Below, in pieces: positions 28,217 to 34,775 of a stretch of DNA of 64,000 nt. The notes beneath the pieces are model-generated. The model was not told the DNA's origin, made no database searches, and worked only from the letters and a program-made list of their open reading frames with translations. Source of the DNA: Roseateles sp. (GTDB lineage Bacteria > Pseudomonadota > Gammaproteobacteria > Burkholderiales > Burkholderiaceae_C); the NCBI RefSeq assembly GCF_965262435.1, contig NZ_OZ253537.1, positions 825,332 to 889,331 of the forward strand, read 5' to 3'. Within the stretch, counting starts at the first letter, position 1, and every line of letters begins with the position of its first letter. Made by a program: the position numbers and the translations under genes.

Positions 28217-29599
28217 TCACTTGCCAATACAAAACTTGCTGAAAATTTCTCCGAGCAAGTCGTCGGCCGAGAAGGCCCCGGTGATCTCGCCCAGGGCGTC
28301 GTGGGCGAGGCGCAGTTCTTCGGCCAGCAGGTCCAGCGCCGGCGGCTGCTGGTGGGCCACGGCTTGGGCCATATCGAGATGCTCTCGAGTTCGGCGCAGG
28401 GCCTGCACATGGCGCTCGCGGGCGATGTAGAGGCCTTCGGGCGTGGCTTGCCAGCCCACTTGCTGCAGCAGGCGCTGGCGCAGGGCTTGCAGGCCGGCGC
28501 CGGACTTGGCGGACAGGCTCAGCGCGCCCTCGGGCACCGGCGCGGCATTGGGCGCATCGCTCTTGTTGAAGACTTGCAGGATGCGCTCGGCTGACACGTT
28601 AGCCAGTCGGGCTGAAATCAGACGGTCTTCGGCCTCGTAGTCGGCCTGGCCAACGCGGGTCAGGTCGTGCAGGAAGAGCAGCACATCGGCATCGGCAATC
28701 GCCTCCCAGCTGCGCGCCACGCCGATGCGTTCGACCTCGTCTTCGGTGTCGCGCAGGCCGGCGGTGTCGCTGATGTGCAGGGGCACACCTTCGATCTGTA
28801 TGGTCTGGCTGACCTTGTCGCGCGTGGTGCCCGGGATGGGCGTGACGATGGCCAGCTCGGCGCCGGCCAGGGCGTTCAGCAGCGAGCTCTTGCCCACATT
28901 GGGCTGGCCGGCCAGCACGACCTTGATGCCCTCGCGTAGCAAGGCGCCCTGGCGTGTGCGGTCCAGCACGGCGTCCAGGCGCTGCTGCAGCCGGCTCAGG
29001 CGGCCGAGTGCATCGGCTTGCTGCAGGAAATCAATCTCTTCTTCCGGGAAGTCCAGGGTCGCCTCGACCAGCATGCGCAGCTTGATCAGGGCGTCGCGCA
29101 GCTCGCCCACCTCGCCCGAGAGCGCGCCGCCCAGCGCCCGGCTGGCGCTGCGGGCCGCGGCCTCGGTGCTGGCGTCGATCAGGTCGCTGACGGCCTCGGC
29201 CTGGGCCAGGTCCAGCTTGCCATTGAGAAACGCGCGCTGGGTGAACTCACCCGGCTCGGCCAGGCGCAGGGCCAGGCCCTGCTCACGCCCCGCCTCCAGG
29301 CAGCGCGCCAGCAGCAGCTGCAACACCACCGGGCCGCCATGGGCCTGCAGCTCCAGCACATGCTCGCCGGTGTAGGAATGCGGCGCCGGAAACAGCAGGG
29401 CCAGGCCCTGGTCGATGGCCGCGCCGGCTGCGTCGCGAAAAGGCAGATACGTCGCCTCGCGCGCCTTCAGGGCTTTGCCGCAGACGGCGGCCACCAAGGG
29501 GGTCAGGTCTTGCGGGGAGGACACCCGGACGATGCCGACGGCCCCTCGACCCGGGGCGGTGGCGATAGCGGCGATGGGGTCGTGGTGGCGGGAGAGCAT
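28217..29599 (-). CDS. mnmE: tRNA modification GTPase MnmE
   Basis: '[18 protein letters not shown]', '[10 protein letters not shown]', 'GTTRD', 'DTAG', C-terminal 'FCIGK'. Confidence 0.98.
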
Positions 29600-29883: not shown

Positions 29884-31596
29884 CTAGTTCTGCACGCCCA
29901 GTTTCTTGTTGATGTACCACTGCTGGGCGATCGACAGGATGTTGTTCACCAGCCAGTACAGCACCAGGCCCGAGGGGAAGATGAAGAACATGAAGCTGAA
30001 GGCCAGCGGCATGATCCACATCATCTTGGCCTGCATCGGGTCCGGCGGCGTCGGGTTCAGCCAGACCTGGAACAGGCTGGAGGCCGTCATCAGCAGGGGC
30101 AGGATGAAGTAGGGGTCCTTGACCGACAGGTCGGTGATCCAGCCCAGCCAGGGCGCGCCACGCATTTCCACGGTGGACAGCAGCACCCAGTACAGGCCCA
30201 TGAAGAAAGGCATCTGCAAGAAGATGGGCAGGCAACCGCCGATGGGGTTGACCTTCTCCTCGCGGTAGATCTTCATCATCTCCTGCTGCATCTGCTGCGG
30301 CTTGTCCTTCAGGCGCTCGCGCATTTCCTGAATCTTGGGGCCGACGGCCTTCATCTTCGCCATGCTCTTGTAGGCGCTGGCGTTCAGCCAGTAGAAGGCG
30401 ATCTTCAGCAGCACGACCAGGGCGATGATGGCCCAGCCCCAGTTGCCCAGGATGGAGTGCAGCTTTTCCAGCAGCCAGAACAGAGGCTTGGCCAGGATGG
30501 CGAAGATGCCGTAGTCCTTCACCAGCTCCAGGCCCGGGGCCAGAGCGGCGAGCTTGTTTTCTTCCTGCGGGCCAACGAAGAGCTGGTCCACCTTGGTGGC
30601 GGTGGCGCCCGGAGCCAGCTGGGGCAGGGTGAAGACCATGCCGACGGCGAACTGCTCGGGCGCGGCACCCTTGATCTTGTTGACGAAGAACTCGCGCGGC
30701 GCGGCATCGGTGTGCAGCCAGGCGCTGGCGAAGTAATGCTGGACCATGGCCACCCAACCGTCGTTGGCGGTCTTGTCGTGCTCGGCCTTGCCCTTGGCCA
30801 GGTCGCTGAACTCGAACTTCTGGAACTTGTTCTTGTCGGTGTAGATGGCCGGGCCGGTGAAGGTGCCGGTGAAGGCCGTACCGCCGGGGCCTGCCACGCC
30901 GTCACGCACCAGCTGCACATAGACCTGCGGGGTCAGGGCGGCTGCGCCCTTGTTGATGACCTCGTGCTTGACGCCGATGACATAGTCGCCGCGCTTGAAG
31001 CTGTAGGTCTTCACATAAACCACGCCGCCGACTTCGGCCGACTCCAGGCGCACCAGCAGCTCATTGGCGCCATCGGCCAGCTTGCGCTCGGGCGTGGTCA
31101 CCGTCATCAGCGTGTTGTGCGTGGGCAGCTGTTCGCCGCGCGTGCCGACCAGGCCTGTCTGGGCCTTGTAGCTTTGCGCGGCCGCGTCCATCAGCACGAT
31201 GGGCTTGGGCTCGACCTTGGGCTTTTCCTTCAGGCCCACGGCTTGCAGCAGCGGGTCGAACAGGCCGGGCTCGGGCGAAGCCAGGTACTTGGGCAGCTCG
31301 ACATGGGTGACATCACCGCCCTGGGTGTCCAGGGTGATGGTCATGACATCGGTGCTGATGTTCAGCTTCTCGCTGCGGGCGGCGACGGGCGCACCCGGCA
31401 CGGCCGTGGCGCCAGCGGCCAGGCCCGCGGCAGCGGGCACACCCGGCTGCGCGGCCGAACCGGCGGCGGCCACCGGCTTGGCGGCCGGCGGGCTGAACAT
31501 CGACGGATGTCCGTTGTGCTTTTGCCAGCCGTCCCAGAGCAGGACGAGGGACATGGTGAACACCACCCACAGGACGGTGCGGCGAATATCAGTCAT
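29884..31596 (-). CDS. yidC: membrane protein insertase YidC
   Basis: 'MTDIRRTVLW', 'GNWGWAIIALV', 'NP.GGCLP', 'GLVLYW..NN.LSI.QQ'. Confidence 0.97.
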   Translation of the reverse strand: MTDIRRTVLWVVFTMSLVLLWDGWQKHNGHPSMFSPPAAKPVAAAGSAAQPGVPAAAGLAAGATAVPGAPVAARSEKLNISTDVMTITLDTQGGDVTHVELPKYLASPEPGLFDPLLQAVGLKEKPKVEPKPIVLMDAAAQSYKAQTGLVGTRGEQLPTHNTLMTVTTPERKLADGANELLVRLESAEVGGVVYVKTYSFKRGDYVIGVKHEVINKGAAALTPQVYVQLVRDGVAGPGGTAFTGTFTGPAIYTDKNKFQKFEFSDLAKGKAEHDKTANDGWVAMVQHYFASAWLHTDAAPREFFVNKIKGAAPEQFAVGMVFTLPQLAPGATATKVDQLFVGPQEENKLAALAPGLELVKDYGIFAILAKPLFWLLEKLHSILGNWGWAIIALVVLLKIAFYWLNASAYKSMAKMKAVGPKIQEMRERLKDKPQQMQQEMMKIYREEKVNPIGGCLPIFLQMPFFMGLYWVLLSTVEMRGAPWLGWITDLSVKDPYFILPLLMTASSLFQVWLNPTPPDPMQAKMMWIMPLAFSFMFFIFPSGLVLYWLVNNILSIAQQWYINKKLGVQN

Positions 31597-31925
31597 GAGG
31601 AGGCTTCTGATTGGGTGGAATTGCGGGAGGGAGAAGAGGCATTCGGCGCGCACAGCCCGAGTCGGCTGAACAGCGCAGGCGGATTGTCAGGCACAGCGTC
31701 ATGGCCGCCGGCACACAAAGGGTGGCAGCGCAACAGACGGTGCACGGTCAGATAGCTGCCGGCGGCGGCGCCATGGCGCTGCAAGGCCTCGATCGAGTAG
31801 ACCGAACAAGTCGGCTCGAAACGGCAGGCGCTGCCCAGCCAGGGGCTCAGCAGCAGGCGGTAGCCACGCACCAGGCCGACCAAAGCGCGCTGCGCAATCG
31901 AAGGGGCGGCGGGGTCGTGGGCCAT
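31593..31925 (-). CDS. yidD: membrane protein insertion efficiency factor
   Basis: 'CRFEPTCS.Y..EAL..HG', 'RLLRCHP.C.GG.D'. Confidence 0.95.
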   Translation of the reverse strand: MAHDPAAPSIAQRALVGLVRGYRLLLSPWLGSACRFEPTCSVYSIEALQRHGAAAGSYLTVHRLLRCHPLCAGGHDAVPDNPPALFSRLGLCAPNASSPSRNSTQSEASS

Positions 31926-31952
31926 GGCGGCTGGCAGGAATGCGGCAGCCGC

Positions 31953-32414
31953 TCAGGGCTGAGCCGGCGTGTTGCGTGGCAACAGGCGGTTCAGCAACTG
32001 GGCGAGTTCGGCGTGCGCAGCAGCACGCAGCGCATCGGAGGCGGCGCTGGGGAACTGCTTGCGATCAAAAGGCGTGCGCAAACGCACCACCCACAGACCC
32101 GGCGGCAAAAGCGGCTGGTCGGCAAAGGCGGCGCGGATTTGGCGCTTCAGCAGGGAGCGCGTGACGGAGCGGCGGGCATGGCGTTTGGGCACGATGACCC
32201 CCAACCACTGGCCGTCCGGCAGTGCTTCATCCACAGGGCTGTGGGCTTCTTGTGCATCGCCTGTTGATAACTTACCTGCAGCGGTGGATAAGACCTTGGC
32301 AGGCAGGCTCGGCGAGGCCGACAGATGGTGCACGGCGAAGTGACTGCTGCGCACGCGGCTGGGGCGACCCAGCACGCGTTCAAAGTCGGCCGATCGCACG
32401 ATGCGGCCGATCAT
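31953..32414 (-). CDS. rnpA: ribonuclease P protein component, with an internal insertion
   Basis: 'DFERVL', 'WLGVIVPKR.ARRSVTR.LLKRQIR'; canonical position between rpmH and yidD. Confidence 0.93.
   Translation of the reverse strand: MIGRIVRSADFERVLGRPSRVRSSHFAVHHLSASPSLPAKVLSTAAGKLSTGDAQEAHSPVDEALPDGQWLGVIVPKRHARRSVTRSLLKRQIRAAFADQPLLPPGLWVVRLRTPFDRKQFPSAASDALRAAAHAELAQLLNRLLPRNTPAQP
32227..32291. promoter_or_regulatory. cluster of DnaA-box-like 9-mers inside rnpA
   Basis: TCATCCACA (32227-35, +), TTATCAACA (32262-70, -) and TTATCCACC (32283-91, -), each 1 mismatch from TTATCCACA. Confidence 0.6.
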
Positions 32415-32437
32415 GATTCAGGAAGAAAGAACCTGAA

Positions 32438-32572
32438 TTAGACAGCCAGACGCTTGCGGCCCTTGGCGCGGCGCGCGGCGATGACGGCACGGCCACCGCG
32501 GGTCTTCATGCGGACCAGGAAGCCATGGGTGCGGGCGCGACGGGTCTTGGATGCTTGGTAAGTACGTTTCAT
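32438..32572 (-). CDS. rpmH: 50S ribosomal protein L34
   Basis: Translated by hand: [44 protein letters not shown] (44 aa, below the ORF-track cutoff). Confidence 0.98.
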
Positions 32573-33067
32573 GATGGAGGCCTCTTGAGAAGGTCTAAGG
32601 TCGTCGGATGACGCTTTAGCTGTGGTTGGCGATCAATCGCCGGGTGCAAAACGAGTTGCGGATTGCACCTCAAGCGTCGGCTGGTTCAGGGCTGGTGCTC
32701 TGCAGGGCGATGGATCGCCCGGCGGTTTACAGCTCTTTCACCAACAGCCACTGATGTGTGCCGCGCCGGGGCGCCGCTCATGCGTTGGCAACATCGAAAC
32801 CCTGAGCCGTCAGCGGACCTGTGTACAAGTCGCGCCGCCGGTGGCAGAAATTCGATGCTGCGTTCATTGCCAAGTTCGGCCAAAGCCGAAGTCAGCCATT
32901 GTCGCAAGGATGATTGCCTGGCGCCGGGTATGGGCTCACGGTTTTCGGATCCGCTGCTTTGGCTGGCATTTATGCAATGCAGCTCGCCAAGGCAGCAGGC
33001 CCAAGGAATGTGCCCACCTGTGCACCAAACACCCGACCCAAGGTCCGCAGCGTCCGGAAAACCCGCG

Positions 33068-33096
33068 ATTACACCAAAGAATGCGGCCGCGGTCAA
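33068..33096 (-). promoter_or_regulatory. sigma70 promoter pointing toward rpmH
   Basis: Minus strand TTGACC-N17-TGTAAT. Confidence 0.7.
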
Positions 33097-33149
33097 TGCC
33101 CGGGCATTTGCTAGCGGGGTTTACCGGGGATTGACCGCGCCGAAAAATC

Positions 33150-33218
33150 TGTGGATAACCTTGGATCCGGCGGCCTTGAACCCGTACAATCTGGCCGCTC
33201 TAGAACAAGTTTTCCACA
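33150..33218 (+). promoter_or_regulatory. dnaA promoter region with DnaA boxes
   Basis: Perfect box TGTGGATAA at 33150-33158, TTTTCCACA at 33210-33218 abutting the ATG, and -10 TACAAT at 33185-33190. Confidence 0.8.
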
Positions 33219-34775
33219 ATGAGCGCAGACATGTTTGGCGCTGAGGGCATGAGCCCGCAGCCGGTGCCGGAGCAGGGCTTTGACCAGGGGTTCGACCTCT
33301 GGCAACGCGGCTGCGAGAGGCTGGCCGCCGAGTTGCCCGAGCAGCAATTCAACACCTGGATCCGCCCCTTGCCGCCCGCCGTGGTGGCCGATGGCGCGGG
33401 TGCCGAAGGCCTGGTCGTTTCCCTGCGGGTGCCCAACCGCTTCAAGCTGGACTGGATCCGCAACCAGTACGCCGGCCGCATCGAATCCATCCTCAGCGAA
33501 CTCGCCGGCAAGCCAGCCCGCCTGGAGCTGGCCCTGGCCGCCCGCGAACCGATGGCGCCCATGGGCCGCCCGGCCACCTTGAGCTCGCCGTCCAGCCCGG
33601 CCATCTCGGTCGGCCAGGTGCTGCACAACGGCCTGCGCCCGGTTTCTCACCCAGCCGACCCGCGCCCTGACTCCCGCAGCGCCGCGGCCGGCGCGTCGCC
33701 CGCCCAGGCTCAGCAGGTGGCCATGCCGGCTGCCAACCTGCCGCCGAGCGCCAGCCGCCACCGCATCAACAGCGCGCTGACCTTTGACAACCTCGTGCCC
33801 GGCCGCGCCAACCAGATGGCGCGCACCGCCGCCCTGCACGTGGCCGGTGCGCCCGGTGCCATGTACAACCCGCTGTTCATCTACGGCGGCGTCGGCCTGG
33901 GCAAGACCCACTTGATCCACGCCGTGGGCAATGCCTTGCTCAAGGACAAGCCCGATGCGCGCGTGCTGTATTTGCACGCCGAGCAGTTCATCTCCGACGT
34001 GGTGAAGAATTACCAGCGCAAGACTTTTGACGAGCTCAAGGCCAAGTACCACTCGCTCGACCTGCTGCTCATCGACGATGTGCAGTTCTTCGCCGGCAAG
34101 GAGCGCACGCAGGAGGAGTTCTTCAACGCCTTCGAGGCCCTGCTGGCCAAGCGCGCCCACATCATCATGACCAGCGACACCTACCCCAAGGGTCTGGCCG
34201 ATATCGATGAGCGCCTGACCAGCCGCTTCGACGCCGGCCTGACGGTGGCTATCGAGCCGCCCGAGCTGGAGATGCGCGTCGCCATCCTGATCAAGAAGGC
34301 GGAGGCTGAAGCCACGCCCATGCCCGAGGACGTGGCCTTCTTCATCGCCAAGAACGTGCGCGCCAATGTGCGCGAGCTGGAAGGTGCCCTGCGCAAGGTC
34401 TTGGCCTACAGCCGCTTCAGCCACAAGGAAATCAACATCCAGCTGGCGCGCGAGGCGCTGAAAGACCTGCTCTCGATCCAGAACCGGCAGATCTCGGTGG
34501 AGAACATCCAGAAGACCGTGGCCGATTTCTACAAGATCAAGATCGCCGACATGTACAGCAAGAAGCGCCCTGCCAGCATCGCCCGGCCGCGCCAGATTGC
34601 CATGTACCTGGCCAAGGAGCTCACGCAAAAGAGCCTTCCCGAGATCGGCGAGCTGTTCGGCGGCCGCGACCACACCACGGTGCTGCACGCCGTGCGCAAG
34701 ATCGGCGGCGAGCGTCAGAAGAACACCGAGCTGAACCAGCAGCTCCACGTGCTCGAGCAGACCTTGAAGGGTTGA
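33219..34775 (+). CDS. dnaA: chromosomal replication initiator DnaA
   Basis: 'FNTWIRPL', '[16 protein letters not shown]', 'LLLIDDVQF', 'RDHTTVLHA'. Confidence 0.99.

Follow-up and report, generated by a model that had tools for sequence, protein, structure and literature searches.

The window analysed here, a stretch of 64,000 nucleotides from Roseateles sp., contains the rpmH-rnpA-yidD-yidC-mnmE transcription unit beside dnaA (Table 1). The rnpA gene lies 23 bp behind rpmH on the same strand. The product of rnpA falls into the Pfam family Ribonuclease_P (PF00825, E 1.6e-10) and matches solved RnpA structures, e.g. 1a6f, in a profile comparison. An insert in this protein had been proposed in an earlier note on the same DNA, and it is present in the translation at about residues 33–68. 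In the AlphaFold2 model the core of RnpA has pLDDT values above 90, and the inserted loop, placed between the strands 26–31 and 69–74, has values of 54–71 and carries no secondary structure; the loop peptide is thus predicted to be disordered. Among genera the loop is hypervariable in both length and sequence.

Table 1. Genes and DnaA boxes of the rnpA-dnaA region, with positions in the window.
Feature	Position	Strand	Basis or remark
mnmE	28217-29599	-	Pfam TrmE_N, MnmE_helical; downstream of boxes
yidC	29884-31653 (ORF limits)	-	Pfam YidC_periplas, 60KD_IMP; downstream of boxes
yidD	31593-31925	-	Pfam YidD; downstream of boxes
rnpA (RNase P protein), 153 aa	31953..32414	-	ORF and translation
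Loop-coding DNA hosting boxes, RnpA residues about 32-69	32206..32321	-	AlphaFold2 model and variability
Box 3 (anchor B) TCATCCACA, inverted	32227-32235	+	one-mismatch DnaA box
Degenerate box AAGCCCACA, 2 bp past weak box, 4 bp from inverted box	32240-32248	-	sequence
Weak box CGATGCACA, 2 bp past box 2, 'double box' arrangement	32251-32259	-	sequence
Box 2 (anchor A) TTATCAACA, codons L49-S50-T51	32262-32270	-	one-mismatch DnaA box
Box 1 TTATCCACC, codons L42-S43-T44	32283-32291	-	one-mismatch DnaA box
rpmH (L34), first gene of operon transcribed through boxes	32438..32572	-	ORF; tblastn matches to relatives
dnaA-proximal pair, perfect TTATCCACA	33150-33158	-	
dnaA-proximal pair, TTTTCCACA	33210-33218	+	abutting dnaA ATG
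dnaA	33219..34775	+	ORF; tblastn matches to relatives

DnaA boxes were defined as 9-mers with at most one mismatch to TTATCCACA or to the known high-GC variant TTGTCCACA. Three of them are located in rnpA within 65 bp, at the places given in the earlier note, and the weaker fourth box that it listed is present as well. The cluster lies 928–992 bp from the dnaA ATG, in agreement with the claimed distance of about 0.9 kb. The degenerate site AAGCCCACA did not appear in that first list. Boxes 1 and 2 share one orientation with 21 nt from start to start. The inverted box 3 reads cc-T GTG GAT GA on the coding strand and encodes P60-V61-D62-E63 (pattern nT GTG GAT GAn). The stretch 32251–32270, consisting of TTATCAACA, gg and CGATGCACA, has the form of a double box, i.e. 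two boxes of the same orientation 2–3 bp apart, and the 26-bp gap between the two anchors in Roseateles holds two weak boxes at 2-bp spacing.

This clustering exceeds chance. The window contains 7 boxes with at most one mismatch versus 2.6 expected, and 3 of the 7 fall in the 65 bp of rnpA. The 260 such boxes of the 5.66-Mb genome form no more than two triples within 100 bp, of which the rnpA triple is the tighter; by arithmetic from the genome box density, about 0.001 triples within 65 bp would be expected per genome. The same consensus is used elsewhere in the genome, with perfect boxes and TTGTCCACA occurring at AT-rich modules and at the dnaA start. The DnaA-box consensus of E. coli is TT[A/T]TNCACA, with C at position 6. 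The commonest anchor, TTATCAACA, departs from it at this position and may be a low-affinity site.

The boxes that abut the dnaA start form a separate, older operator. The two are 60–62 nt apart, start to start, in about 48 of the 53 loci of the clade carrying the rnpA boxes, and in the box-less clade a corresponding pair, about 48–50 nt apart, occurs at 11 of 12 loci. The idea that the rnpA boxes stand in for missing promoter boxes was dropped, since the proximal pair is kept in nearly all family members.

The rare codons of the boxes were inspected in orthologues. The earlier note described TTA, TCA and ACA as rare, which holds true: they account for 0.1% of Leu, 2.2% of Ser and 3.8% of Thr codons, respectively, in a proxy of 845 long high-GC3 ORFs, whose shares lean towards highly biased genes. 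CCT makes up 7% of the Pro codons in the same proxy. TTA TCA ACA of box 2 is identical in all 23 species of the genus. Box 1 is encoded by TTA/TTG TCC ACC/ACA/ACT in 22 of the 23 species, the remaining one (L021) having TTG TGC ACC, and the His codon CAC of the degenerate box is invariant within the genus. Single-codon columns amount to 15 of the 93 conserved-residue columns within the genus; the boxes hold 7 of the 15, and 4 of these 7 are the genome-rare codons TTA, TCA, ACA and CCT. The same preference extends over 56 genus representatives, in which the Leu codon of box 2 is TTA (32) or TTG (24) and never CTN, the Ser codon is TCA (34) or TCC (21) and never AGC or TCG, and the Thr codon is ACA in 55. 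In box 3, GTG is found in 54 of 54 genus representatives and GAT in 46 of 52. Control columns within the same rnpA genes are occupied by CTG, AGC and ACC/ACG. An alignment of orthologues had been suggested as a check, and its outcome is that the boxes are held through rare synonymous codons as the spacer residues drift. The rare codons fixed across orthologues, versus common codons in the controls, support the view that the 9-mers are under selection as DNA rather than as peptide.

The earlier claim that the insert exists because of the DNA is borne out in part. Within the RnpA loop, the DNA dictates L-S-T and V-D(E/D) and no other residues. However, a box-less sister clade of the same family also has a loop at this place in RnpA, comparable in size, and hence the tolerant loop hosts the boxes and was not created by them.

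Comparison of the genus representatives reveals two sharp islands of invariance in the otherwise variable rnpA loop. The core consists of two convergent boxes, TTRTCMACA and TCATCCACA, with a constant gap of 26 nt in the 54–56 genus representatives, so that boxes 2 and 3 are always 35 nt start to start in the relatives compared. The spacer sequence and the flanks of the loop (8–33 and 4–24 residues) are free to vary. Box 2 carries 2 bits of information at 5 of its 9 positions and at least 1 bit at all 9, and TGTGGA of box 3 is invariant in 54 of 54 genus representatives and in 59 of 59 rows of alignment A3. Box 1 can be recognised with at most two mismatches in 10 of 54 genus representatives versus a background of 0.3%, and is a lineage-specific addition. 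The auxiliary 9-mers at 2-bp spacing are also enriched over background. The 9-mer at the weak-box position (+11) has at most four mismatches in 25 of 54 genera versus 2.9%, with the profile positions G15 and C18 each kept in 80% of genus representatives, and the 9-mer at the degenerate-box position has at most three in 12 of 54 versus 0.7%. In most genera the middle of the 26-bp gap is only weakly box-like.

The exact composite was found in 74 of 201 family genomes (59 of 166 genera), versus none of the 201 for a reversed control pattern, and lies inside rnpA in at least 69 of the 74 carriers when coordinates were compared by hand. On the tree the carriers form one clade with two losses, spanning at least 53 sampled genera. 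In a scan of the whole order, matches outside the family were rare and none of them was near rnpA or dnaA. Some of these out-of-family matches are perfect inverted pairs that share the 26-bp gap and are situated in AT-rich intergenic regions with many boxes.

Readings that do without DnaA, in which the conserved letters are explained by a peptide motif (LST...VD), by a hairpin in the mRNA, by an internal promoter or by some other DNA-binding protein, are very improbable. L-S-T and V-D are indeed conserved as residues too, yet a peptide motif leaves the exclusive use of rare codons unexplained, and it was rejected on account of this exclusivity and of the disorder of the loop in the model. The two inverted 9-mers are able to pair, with standard pairs in 89.8% of cells. 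However, the covariation in the hairpin does not exceed that of shuffles, 220–441 of 500 attaining it, and in 40 of 59 sequences A is opposite G at the central position of the stem. In folding energy the sequence has no advantage over shuffled versions (z = +0.19), and the stem is absent from the minimum-energy fold; the hairpin was dropped on these results. No sigma-70-like promoter site was detected within 31500–33300, which removes an internal sigma-70 promoter from consideration. It also counts against all these readings that both islands fit the consensus of the origin-like modules and of the dnaA start of the same genome. Still less probable, to the point of being nearly negligible, is the bipartite oriC that the earlier note had suggested. 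On this reading the module would be one half of an origin of the Helicobacter or Bacillus type, and the DNA between rpmH and dnaA would be where the strands unwind. The box cluster does adjoin dnaA, and the genes at the locus are divergent, with rpmH on the minus and dnaA on the plus strand. Nevertheless, the gap has 59% G+C and 47.5% in its lowest 40-bp window, the loop DNA of rnpA is GC-rich, and no AT-rich unwinding element was seen near the boxes in either. The cumulative GC-skew minimum is at 805–808 kb and rnpA at 857 kb, about 50 kb apart. Two AT-rich modules with perfect boxes lie near that minimum at 801.3 and 804.9 kb, and their homologues in four other genomes are 46–264 kb from rnpA. 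A skew switch about 90 kb from dnaA has a reported precedent in Cupriavidus, a related bacterium (PMC2864759). The bipartite oriC was rejected because of the GC skew, because no AT-rich element is present and because the origin-like modules are not linked to rnpA; the rnpA module is very probably not part of the origin.

Readings that invoke DnaA are harder to separate, as titration or a nucleotide-state function would predict an identical sequence pattern. The module could be a DnaA reservoir or a nucleotide-state switch like datA, DARS1/2 and the Bacillus clusters, which tunes the timing of a distant oriC by titrating DnaA or by promoting ATP hydrolysis or ADP release; its location in rnpA would then be incidental, or would merely keep the module beside dnaA. 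This is a possibility of some weight, though on balance unlikely. It suits a tight box cluster outside the origin, the presence of other clusters in the genome outside oriC, e.g. in the minC-metG gap, and the fact that newly made DnaA meets the site beside its own gene. The tandem boxes of Roseateles at 2-bp spacing, with an inverted box 4 bp away, also recall the DARS core (PMC6868365). However, 26 bp and not 5 bp separate the conserved anchors, only about one genus in five (12 of 54) has a recognisable box at 4 bp from the inverted one, and no IHF- or Fis-type site was seen, the IHF consensus being searched by eye only. Moreover, a pure sink could occupy any non-coding DNA, including the adjacent 200–650 bp between rpmH and dnaA, yet in a single clade with 53 or more sampled genera the module has stayed in a coding loop. 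Alternatively, DnaA may loop the rnpA site to the pair at the dnaA start, so that the module acts as a distal operator and strengthens autorepression. In favour of this, nearly every member of the family has a conserved pair abutting the dnaA start codon, and the rnpA module is always about 0.45–1 kb from that pair, a constancy that follows from the fixed rnpA-rpmH-dnaA synteny. Nevertheless, from genus to genus the distance between the two sets of boxes differs about twofold and shows no helical phasing, the box-less clade has no boxes other than the proximal pair to rely on, and non-coding DNA much closer to the promoter is available; the distal operator is a rather poor prospect.

The reading that we prefer, tentatively and at slightly less than even odds, is that the loop DNA of rnpA is a dual-coded DnaA-binding module, held by selection at the DNA level, with a role coupled to transcription. 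The module sits in the sole sequence-tolerant DNA of the rpmH-rnpA-yidD-yidC-mnmE unit despite free intergenic region nearby, and this placement suggests the coupling. The boxes are also inside the transcription unit and past its promoter, the position expected of a DnaA roadblock to transcription. From the arrangement of the sites we infer DnaA binding, filling of the gap by an oligomer, and a roadblock or gating of transcription. DnaA would nucleate on the two anchors and oligomerise across the 26-bp gap, which is long enough for two 9-mers phased at 11 bp and a further 4 bp, to yield a complex of perhaps 4–6 protomers. Such a complex on the DNA would hinder RNA polymerase once it has passed rpmH and tie the output of RnpA, YidD, YidC and MnmE to the status of DnaA. 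Conversely, transcription of the rpmH operon could strip DnaA off the site. Against this reading, intragenic boxes need not be occupied, as the single perfect box of guaB is without DnaA binding in ChIP-seq of E. coli (PMC11317965). The possibly low affinity of the commonest anchor and the weak resemblance of the middle of the gap to a box also count against it. A bolder form of the idea, which we regard as unlikely, is that the module is a DnaA switch gated by transcription, i.e. an origin-like oligomerisation array without an unwinding element inside a ribosomal-protein operon, where growth-rate-dependent transcription of rpmH would periodically evict DnaA or alter its nucleotide state. If this were true, ribosome synthesis would be coupled directly to initiation at an origin at least 50 kb away, the output of RNase P, YidC and MnmE would be DnaA-dependent, and a cell-cycle sensor would be made of coding DNA, a function so far known only for non-coding loci of the datA/DARS type.

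DnaA-box clusters outside the origin, such as datA, DARS and the Bacillus clusters, are central to the timing of bacterial replication. To our knowledge, the well-studied clusters of this kind are all non-coding and come from few model species. No description of DnaA boxes inside rnpA was found in full-text literature searches. With a fixed-geometry array in an essential gene and selection at synonymous sites, the rnpA module is among the cleaner natural examples of dual coding. It is also easily testable, as synonymous recoding of five codons deletes the DNA signal and leaves the protein intact. Annotators and users of origin-prediction tools should not take a box cluster next to dnaA for the origin in the carrier clade. 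Similarly, in codon optimisation, rare codons in a loop that looks like 'junk' can be functional DNA.

In E. coli, datA and DARS1/DARS2 are non-coding clusters of DnaA boxes that reset the nucleotide state of DnaA. The rnpA module resembles them as a short box cluster outside the origin that mixes tandem and inverted boxes and uses the oriC consensus, and differs from them in lying inside an essential protein-coding gene. In the DARS core, box II faces the opposite way to box I at a distance of 5 bp and is in tandem with box III (PMC6868365). The Roseateles version, with one inverted box close to tandem boxes, recalls this core, whereas the conserved inverted anchors of rnpA are 26 bp apart and no IHF or Fis sites were recognised. 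Double boxes 2–3 bp apart are the in vivo binding unit of DnaA in E. coli (Stringer, Fitzgerald and Wade 2024, PMC11317965). TTATCAACA, gg and CGATGCACA reproduce such a unit, and a third, degenerate 9-mer follows after 2 bp more. However, the strong box is usually downstream in the double boxes of E. coli and upstream in rnpA, where roughly half of the genera have inner sites that are weak or cannot be recognised. The 26-bp gap, which can be written as 2+9+2+9+4, is also reminiscent of the low-affinity arrays of E. coli oriC, except that the rnpA array has no adjoining unwinding element.

Boxes within transcribed or coding DNA have parallels in E. coli. Where PMC11317965 cites them (references 28 and 29), asnC and guaB are precedents for DnaA complexes that block RNA polymerase in transcribed DNA. 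The asnC terminator region and guaB are like rnpA in that the boxes are within the transcription unit and the action is proposed to be on elongating RNA polymerase. The intragenic DnaA ChIP peaks in dnaN and yceQ likewise have boxes in coding sequence. Nevertheless, these cases of E. coli are single boxes or unconserved sites, unlike the multi-box array of rnpA with its fixed geometry and synonymous-codon conservation in at least 53 sampled genus-level lineages.

Clusters near the origin offer a further comparison. As with oriC1/oriC2 of Helicobacter pylori and incAB/incC of Bacillus subtilis, the rnpA cluster is on one side of dnaA, near the conserved rnpA-rpmH-dnaA-dnaN block. In contrast to these bipartite origins, rnpA lacks an AT-rich unwinding element and is about 50 kb from the skew switch and the origin-like modules. 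In Pseudomonas aeruginosa, DnaA regulates the gidAB-parAB operon through oriCII, which lies upstream of gidA (PMC13438810). The rnpA module is akin to oriCII as a box cluster in the neighbourhood of the origin that acts, as proposed for rnpA, on transcription of the adjacent housekeeping operon and not on initiation. The two differ in placement, oriCII being intergenic and upstream of its promoter, and the rnpA module intragenic and downstream of the promoter.

The loop-coding part of rnpA carries three DnaA boxes, which lie exactly where the earlier note placed them, together with two weaker 9-mers (see table). On the coding strand, box 1 is followed after 12 nt by box 2, which is separated from the weaker box by 2 nt; a further 2 nt lead to the degenerate 9-mer, and the inverted box lies 4 nt beyond that. 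It is embedded in a minus-strand gene series with the order rpmH, rnpA, yidD, yidC and mnmE. When up to one mismatch is allowed, the window contains 7 boxes where 2.6 would be expected, and this cluster accounts for 3 of them. Throughout the genome (5.66 Mb) 260 such boxes are found, yet only two triples fall within 100 bp; from the box density, triples within 65 bp are estimated at about 0.001 per genome.

Features of the rnpA-dnaA region and related DnaA-box sites (window coordinates unless a genome, G, and contig, C, are named; G000 is the genome of the window; L, locus)
Feature	Position	Strand	Remark
rnpA (153 aa)	31953-32414	-	Pfam Ribonuclease_P match; profile match to solved RnpA structures
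rnpA codons 2-7	32394-32411	-	direct repeat of ATCGGCCG also here
rpmH	32438-32572	-	upstream of rnpA, same strand
dnaA	start 33219	+	opposite strand to rnpA
Box 1, TTATCCACC	32283-32291	-	
Box 2 (central), TTATCAACA	32262-32270	-	
Weaker box, CGATGCACA	32251-32259		
Degenerate 9-mer, AAGCCCACA	32240-32248		
Box 3 (inverted), TCATCCACA	32227-32235	+	
rpmH-dnaA gap	32573-33149		
Perfect TTATCCACA	33150-33158	-	dnaA start pair
TTTTCCACA	33210-33218	+	dnaA start pair; adjoins dnaA ATG
AT-rich module, 801.3 kb	G000:C1:801200-801500		L028:4240-4480; intergenic
AT-rich module, 804.9 kb	G000:C1:804700-805000		L028:7740-7980; intergenic
minC-metG gap	G000:C1:4600097-4600380		L029:4098-4381
Inverted pair, L064	G479:C6:183342		
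Inverted pair, L065	G033:C3:16786		
Inverted pair, L066	G286:C1:3178203		

Among 23 species of the genus (Roseateles/Paucibacter; NCBI family Sphaerotilaceae), TTA TCA ACA and CCT GTG are the same in all, and the next codon is GAT in 20. Box 1 is TTA/TTG TCC ACC/ACA/ACT in 22 species and TTG TGC ACC in the other (L021), and the residues between the boxes differ from species to species. A single codon is used in 15 of the 93 columns that combine a conserved residue with a choice of codons. Seven of the 15 fall in the boxes, four of them with codons rare in the genome (TTA, TCA, ACA and CCT); those outside the boxes use preferred codons, except for one rare CGA at codon 7. The rarity of TTA, TCA and ACA, claimed previously, is borne out in the long ORFs of the genome, where they make up 0.1% of Leu, 2.2% of Ser and 3.8% of Thr codons, respectively. 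Separately, synonymous sites at the 5′ end of rnpA (codons 2-7) hardly vary in the genus; codons 3-7 each have a single form, one of them the rare CGA (3% of Arg). This end could be a translation-initiation signal or a signal for coupling with rpmH.

The bias extends to the family Burkholderiaceae_C, which was sampled in two steps with 27 and 40 additional genus-level lineages, the sample being skewed toward lineages with a query-like RnpA. Among 56 genus representatives, the Leu of the central box is encoded by TTA (32) or TTG (24) and never by CTN, while control columns use mainly CTG or CTC. Its Ser is TCA (34) or TCC (21) and never AGC or TCG, against mainly AGC, TCC or TCG in the controls; its Thr is ACA in 55/56, against 5/55. 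In the inverted box Val is GTG in 54/54 (GTG and GTC mixed in controls) and Asp is GAT in 46/52 (about 40-45% in controls). The rare box codons are thus kept across genus and family while spacer residues change, the outcome that the earlier note had anticipated for orthologues. The information profile consists of two sharp islands, AG-TTRTCMACA-G and C-TGTGGATGA, in uninformative surroundings. Their distance is 26 nt in every carrier. Loop length ahead of the first island ranges from 8 to 33 residues, and 4 to 24 residues follow the second. Of 201 family genomes, 74, from 59 of 166 genera, contain the exact composite TTRTCMACA-N26-TGTGGA; none of the 201 contains the reversed control. By coordinate comparison the composite lies inside rnpA in at least 69 of the 74, and a scan of 401 genomes spanning the order Burkholderiales found it within rnpA only in Burkholderiaceae_C.

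An unrooted tree was built from the RnpA core and the first 300 DnaA residues, with the insert columns excluded (386 columns). It separates a clade of 53 carriers with 2 non-carriers from another made up of 10 non-carriers (SH-aLRT 100% for the split). Depending on the root, this topology fits a single gain or a single basal loss, followed by two later losses. The two non-carriers inside the carrier clade, L085 (G102) and L098 (G107), have lost the composite and are natural knock-outs; L085 retains TTGTCCACA, and its inverted box is gone. In other families, three loci (L064, L065 and L066) have perfect inverted box pairs with a 26-bp gap, in AT-rich intergenic regions with several more boxes and an origin-like look. 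Within Burkholderiales, the convergent 26-bp pair may represent a DnaA-binding unit that is older and reusable.

The insert was proposed earlier to exist because its DNA is functional. This holds for the 9-mers, which are selected as DNA, but not for the loop itself, since in the sister clade, which lacks boxes, a similarly long loop occupies this position. In an AlphaFold2 model the RnpA core is confident, and the loop (pLDDT 54-71) lies without secondary structure between the first two long strands. On both counts the loop is a tolerant stretch in which the boxes came to lie, and the DNA dictates no residues other than L-S-T and V-D-(D/E).

A role as part of a bipartite oriC, also put forward in the earlier note, finds no support: the rpmH-dnaA gap is GC-rich with no AT-rich stretch, and the cumulative GC skew minimum lies at 805-808 kb of the genome, rnpA at 857 kb. 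At the minimum, some 20-24 kb before the window begins, are two look-alike AT-rich modules 3.5 kb apart, each combining perfect TTATCCACA and TTGTCCACA boxes with a common GGTAGTCnTAGTA word. The two together are probably the true oriC, in apparently duplicated form. G011, of the same genus, has two module copies 5.5 kb apart. Four genomes besides that of the window have module homologues, at distances from rnpA of 46, about 100 (two copies), 113 and 264 kb; in other genera a homologue is 46-264 kb away from dnaA. In Cupriavidus the skew switch is reported to lie about 90 kb from dnaA (PMC2864759). The box pair at the dnaA start is conserved: its boxes are spaced 60-62 nt start to start in about 48 of the 53 loci of the box clade, and 11 of 12 box-less-clade loci have a corresponding pair with about 48-50 nt spacing. 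It is likely an autoregulatory operator. The rpmH-dnaA gap is unusually long in the genus (646 bp here, 296-745 bp in the genus); rough estimates for most other family genera are about 110-490 bp, mainly 200-350. Elsewhere, the minC-metG gap holds five DnaA boxes in one orientation over about 280 bp, with two pairs close together, and could be a datA/DARS-like or regulatory cluster.

An mRNA hairpin between the inverted 9-mers was rejected: covariation is not above that of shuffles, 40 of 59 sequences have a mismatch at the central pair, and folding of the region is no more favorable than that of shuffled sequence (z = +0.19). A promoter was likewise rejected, no sigma-70-like site occurring in 31500-33300. 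At the level of sequence, the comparisons establish a module of two anchors at fixed spacing, selected as DNA, within a transcription unit and far from the origin. In length, the 26-bp gap corresponds to two 9-mers in phase (2+9+2+9+4), and those at +11 and +22 are box-like far above background frequency; we therefore infer that DnaA fills the gap cooperatively, starting from the two anchors. E. coli DnaA in vivo is found chiefly on box pairs 2-3 bp apart, can occupy sites inside the genes dnaN and yceQ, and forms DnaA-box complexes described as roadblocks (PMC11317965).

Although a flexible non-coding gap lies adjacent, the module occupies the one tolerant stretch of DNA downstream of rpmH, and a transcription-coupled role is therefore favored. 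Bound DnaA would act as a roadblock for rnpA-yidD-yidC-mnmE, and transcription of the rpmH operon would evict DnaA from the module. Titration, or a DARS/datA-like function, is a serious rival, as it predicts the same sequence pattern; DARS cores comprise an inverted box and a tandem pair (PMC6868365).

A full-text literature search turned up no account of DnaA boxes within rnpA. By its sequence features we class the module with the known extra-origin DnaA-box clusters and intragenic DnaA sites, to which it adds dual coding, a fixed geometry and breadth of conservation.
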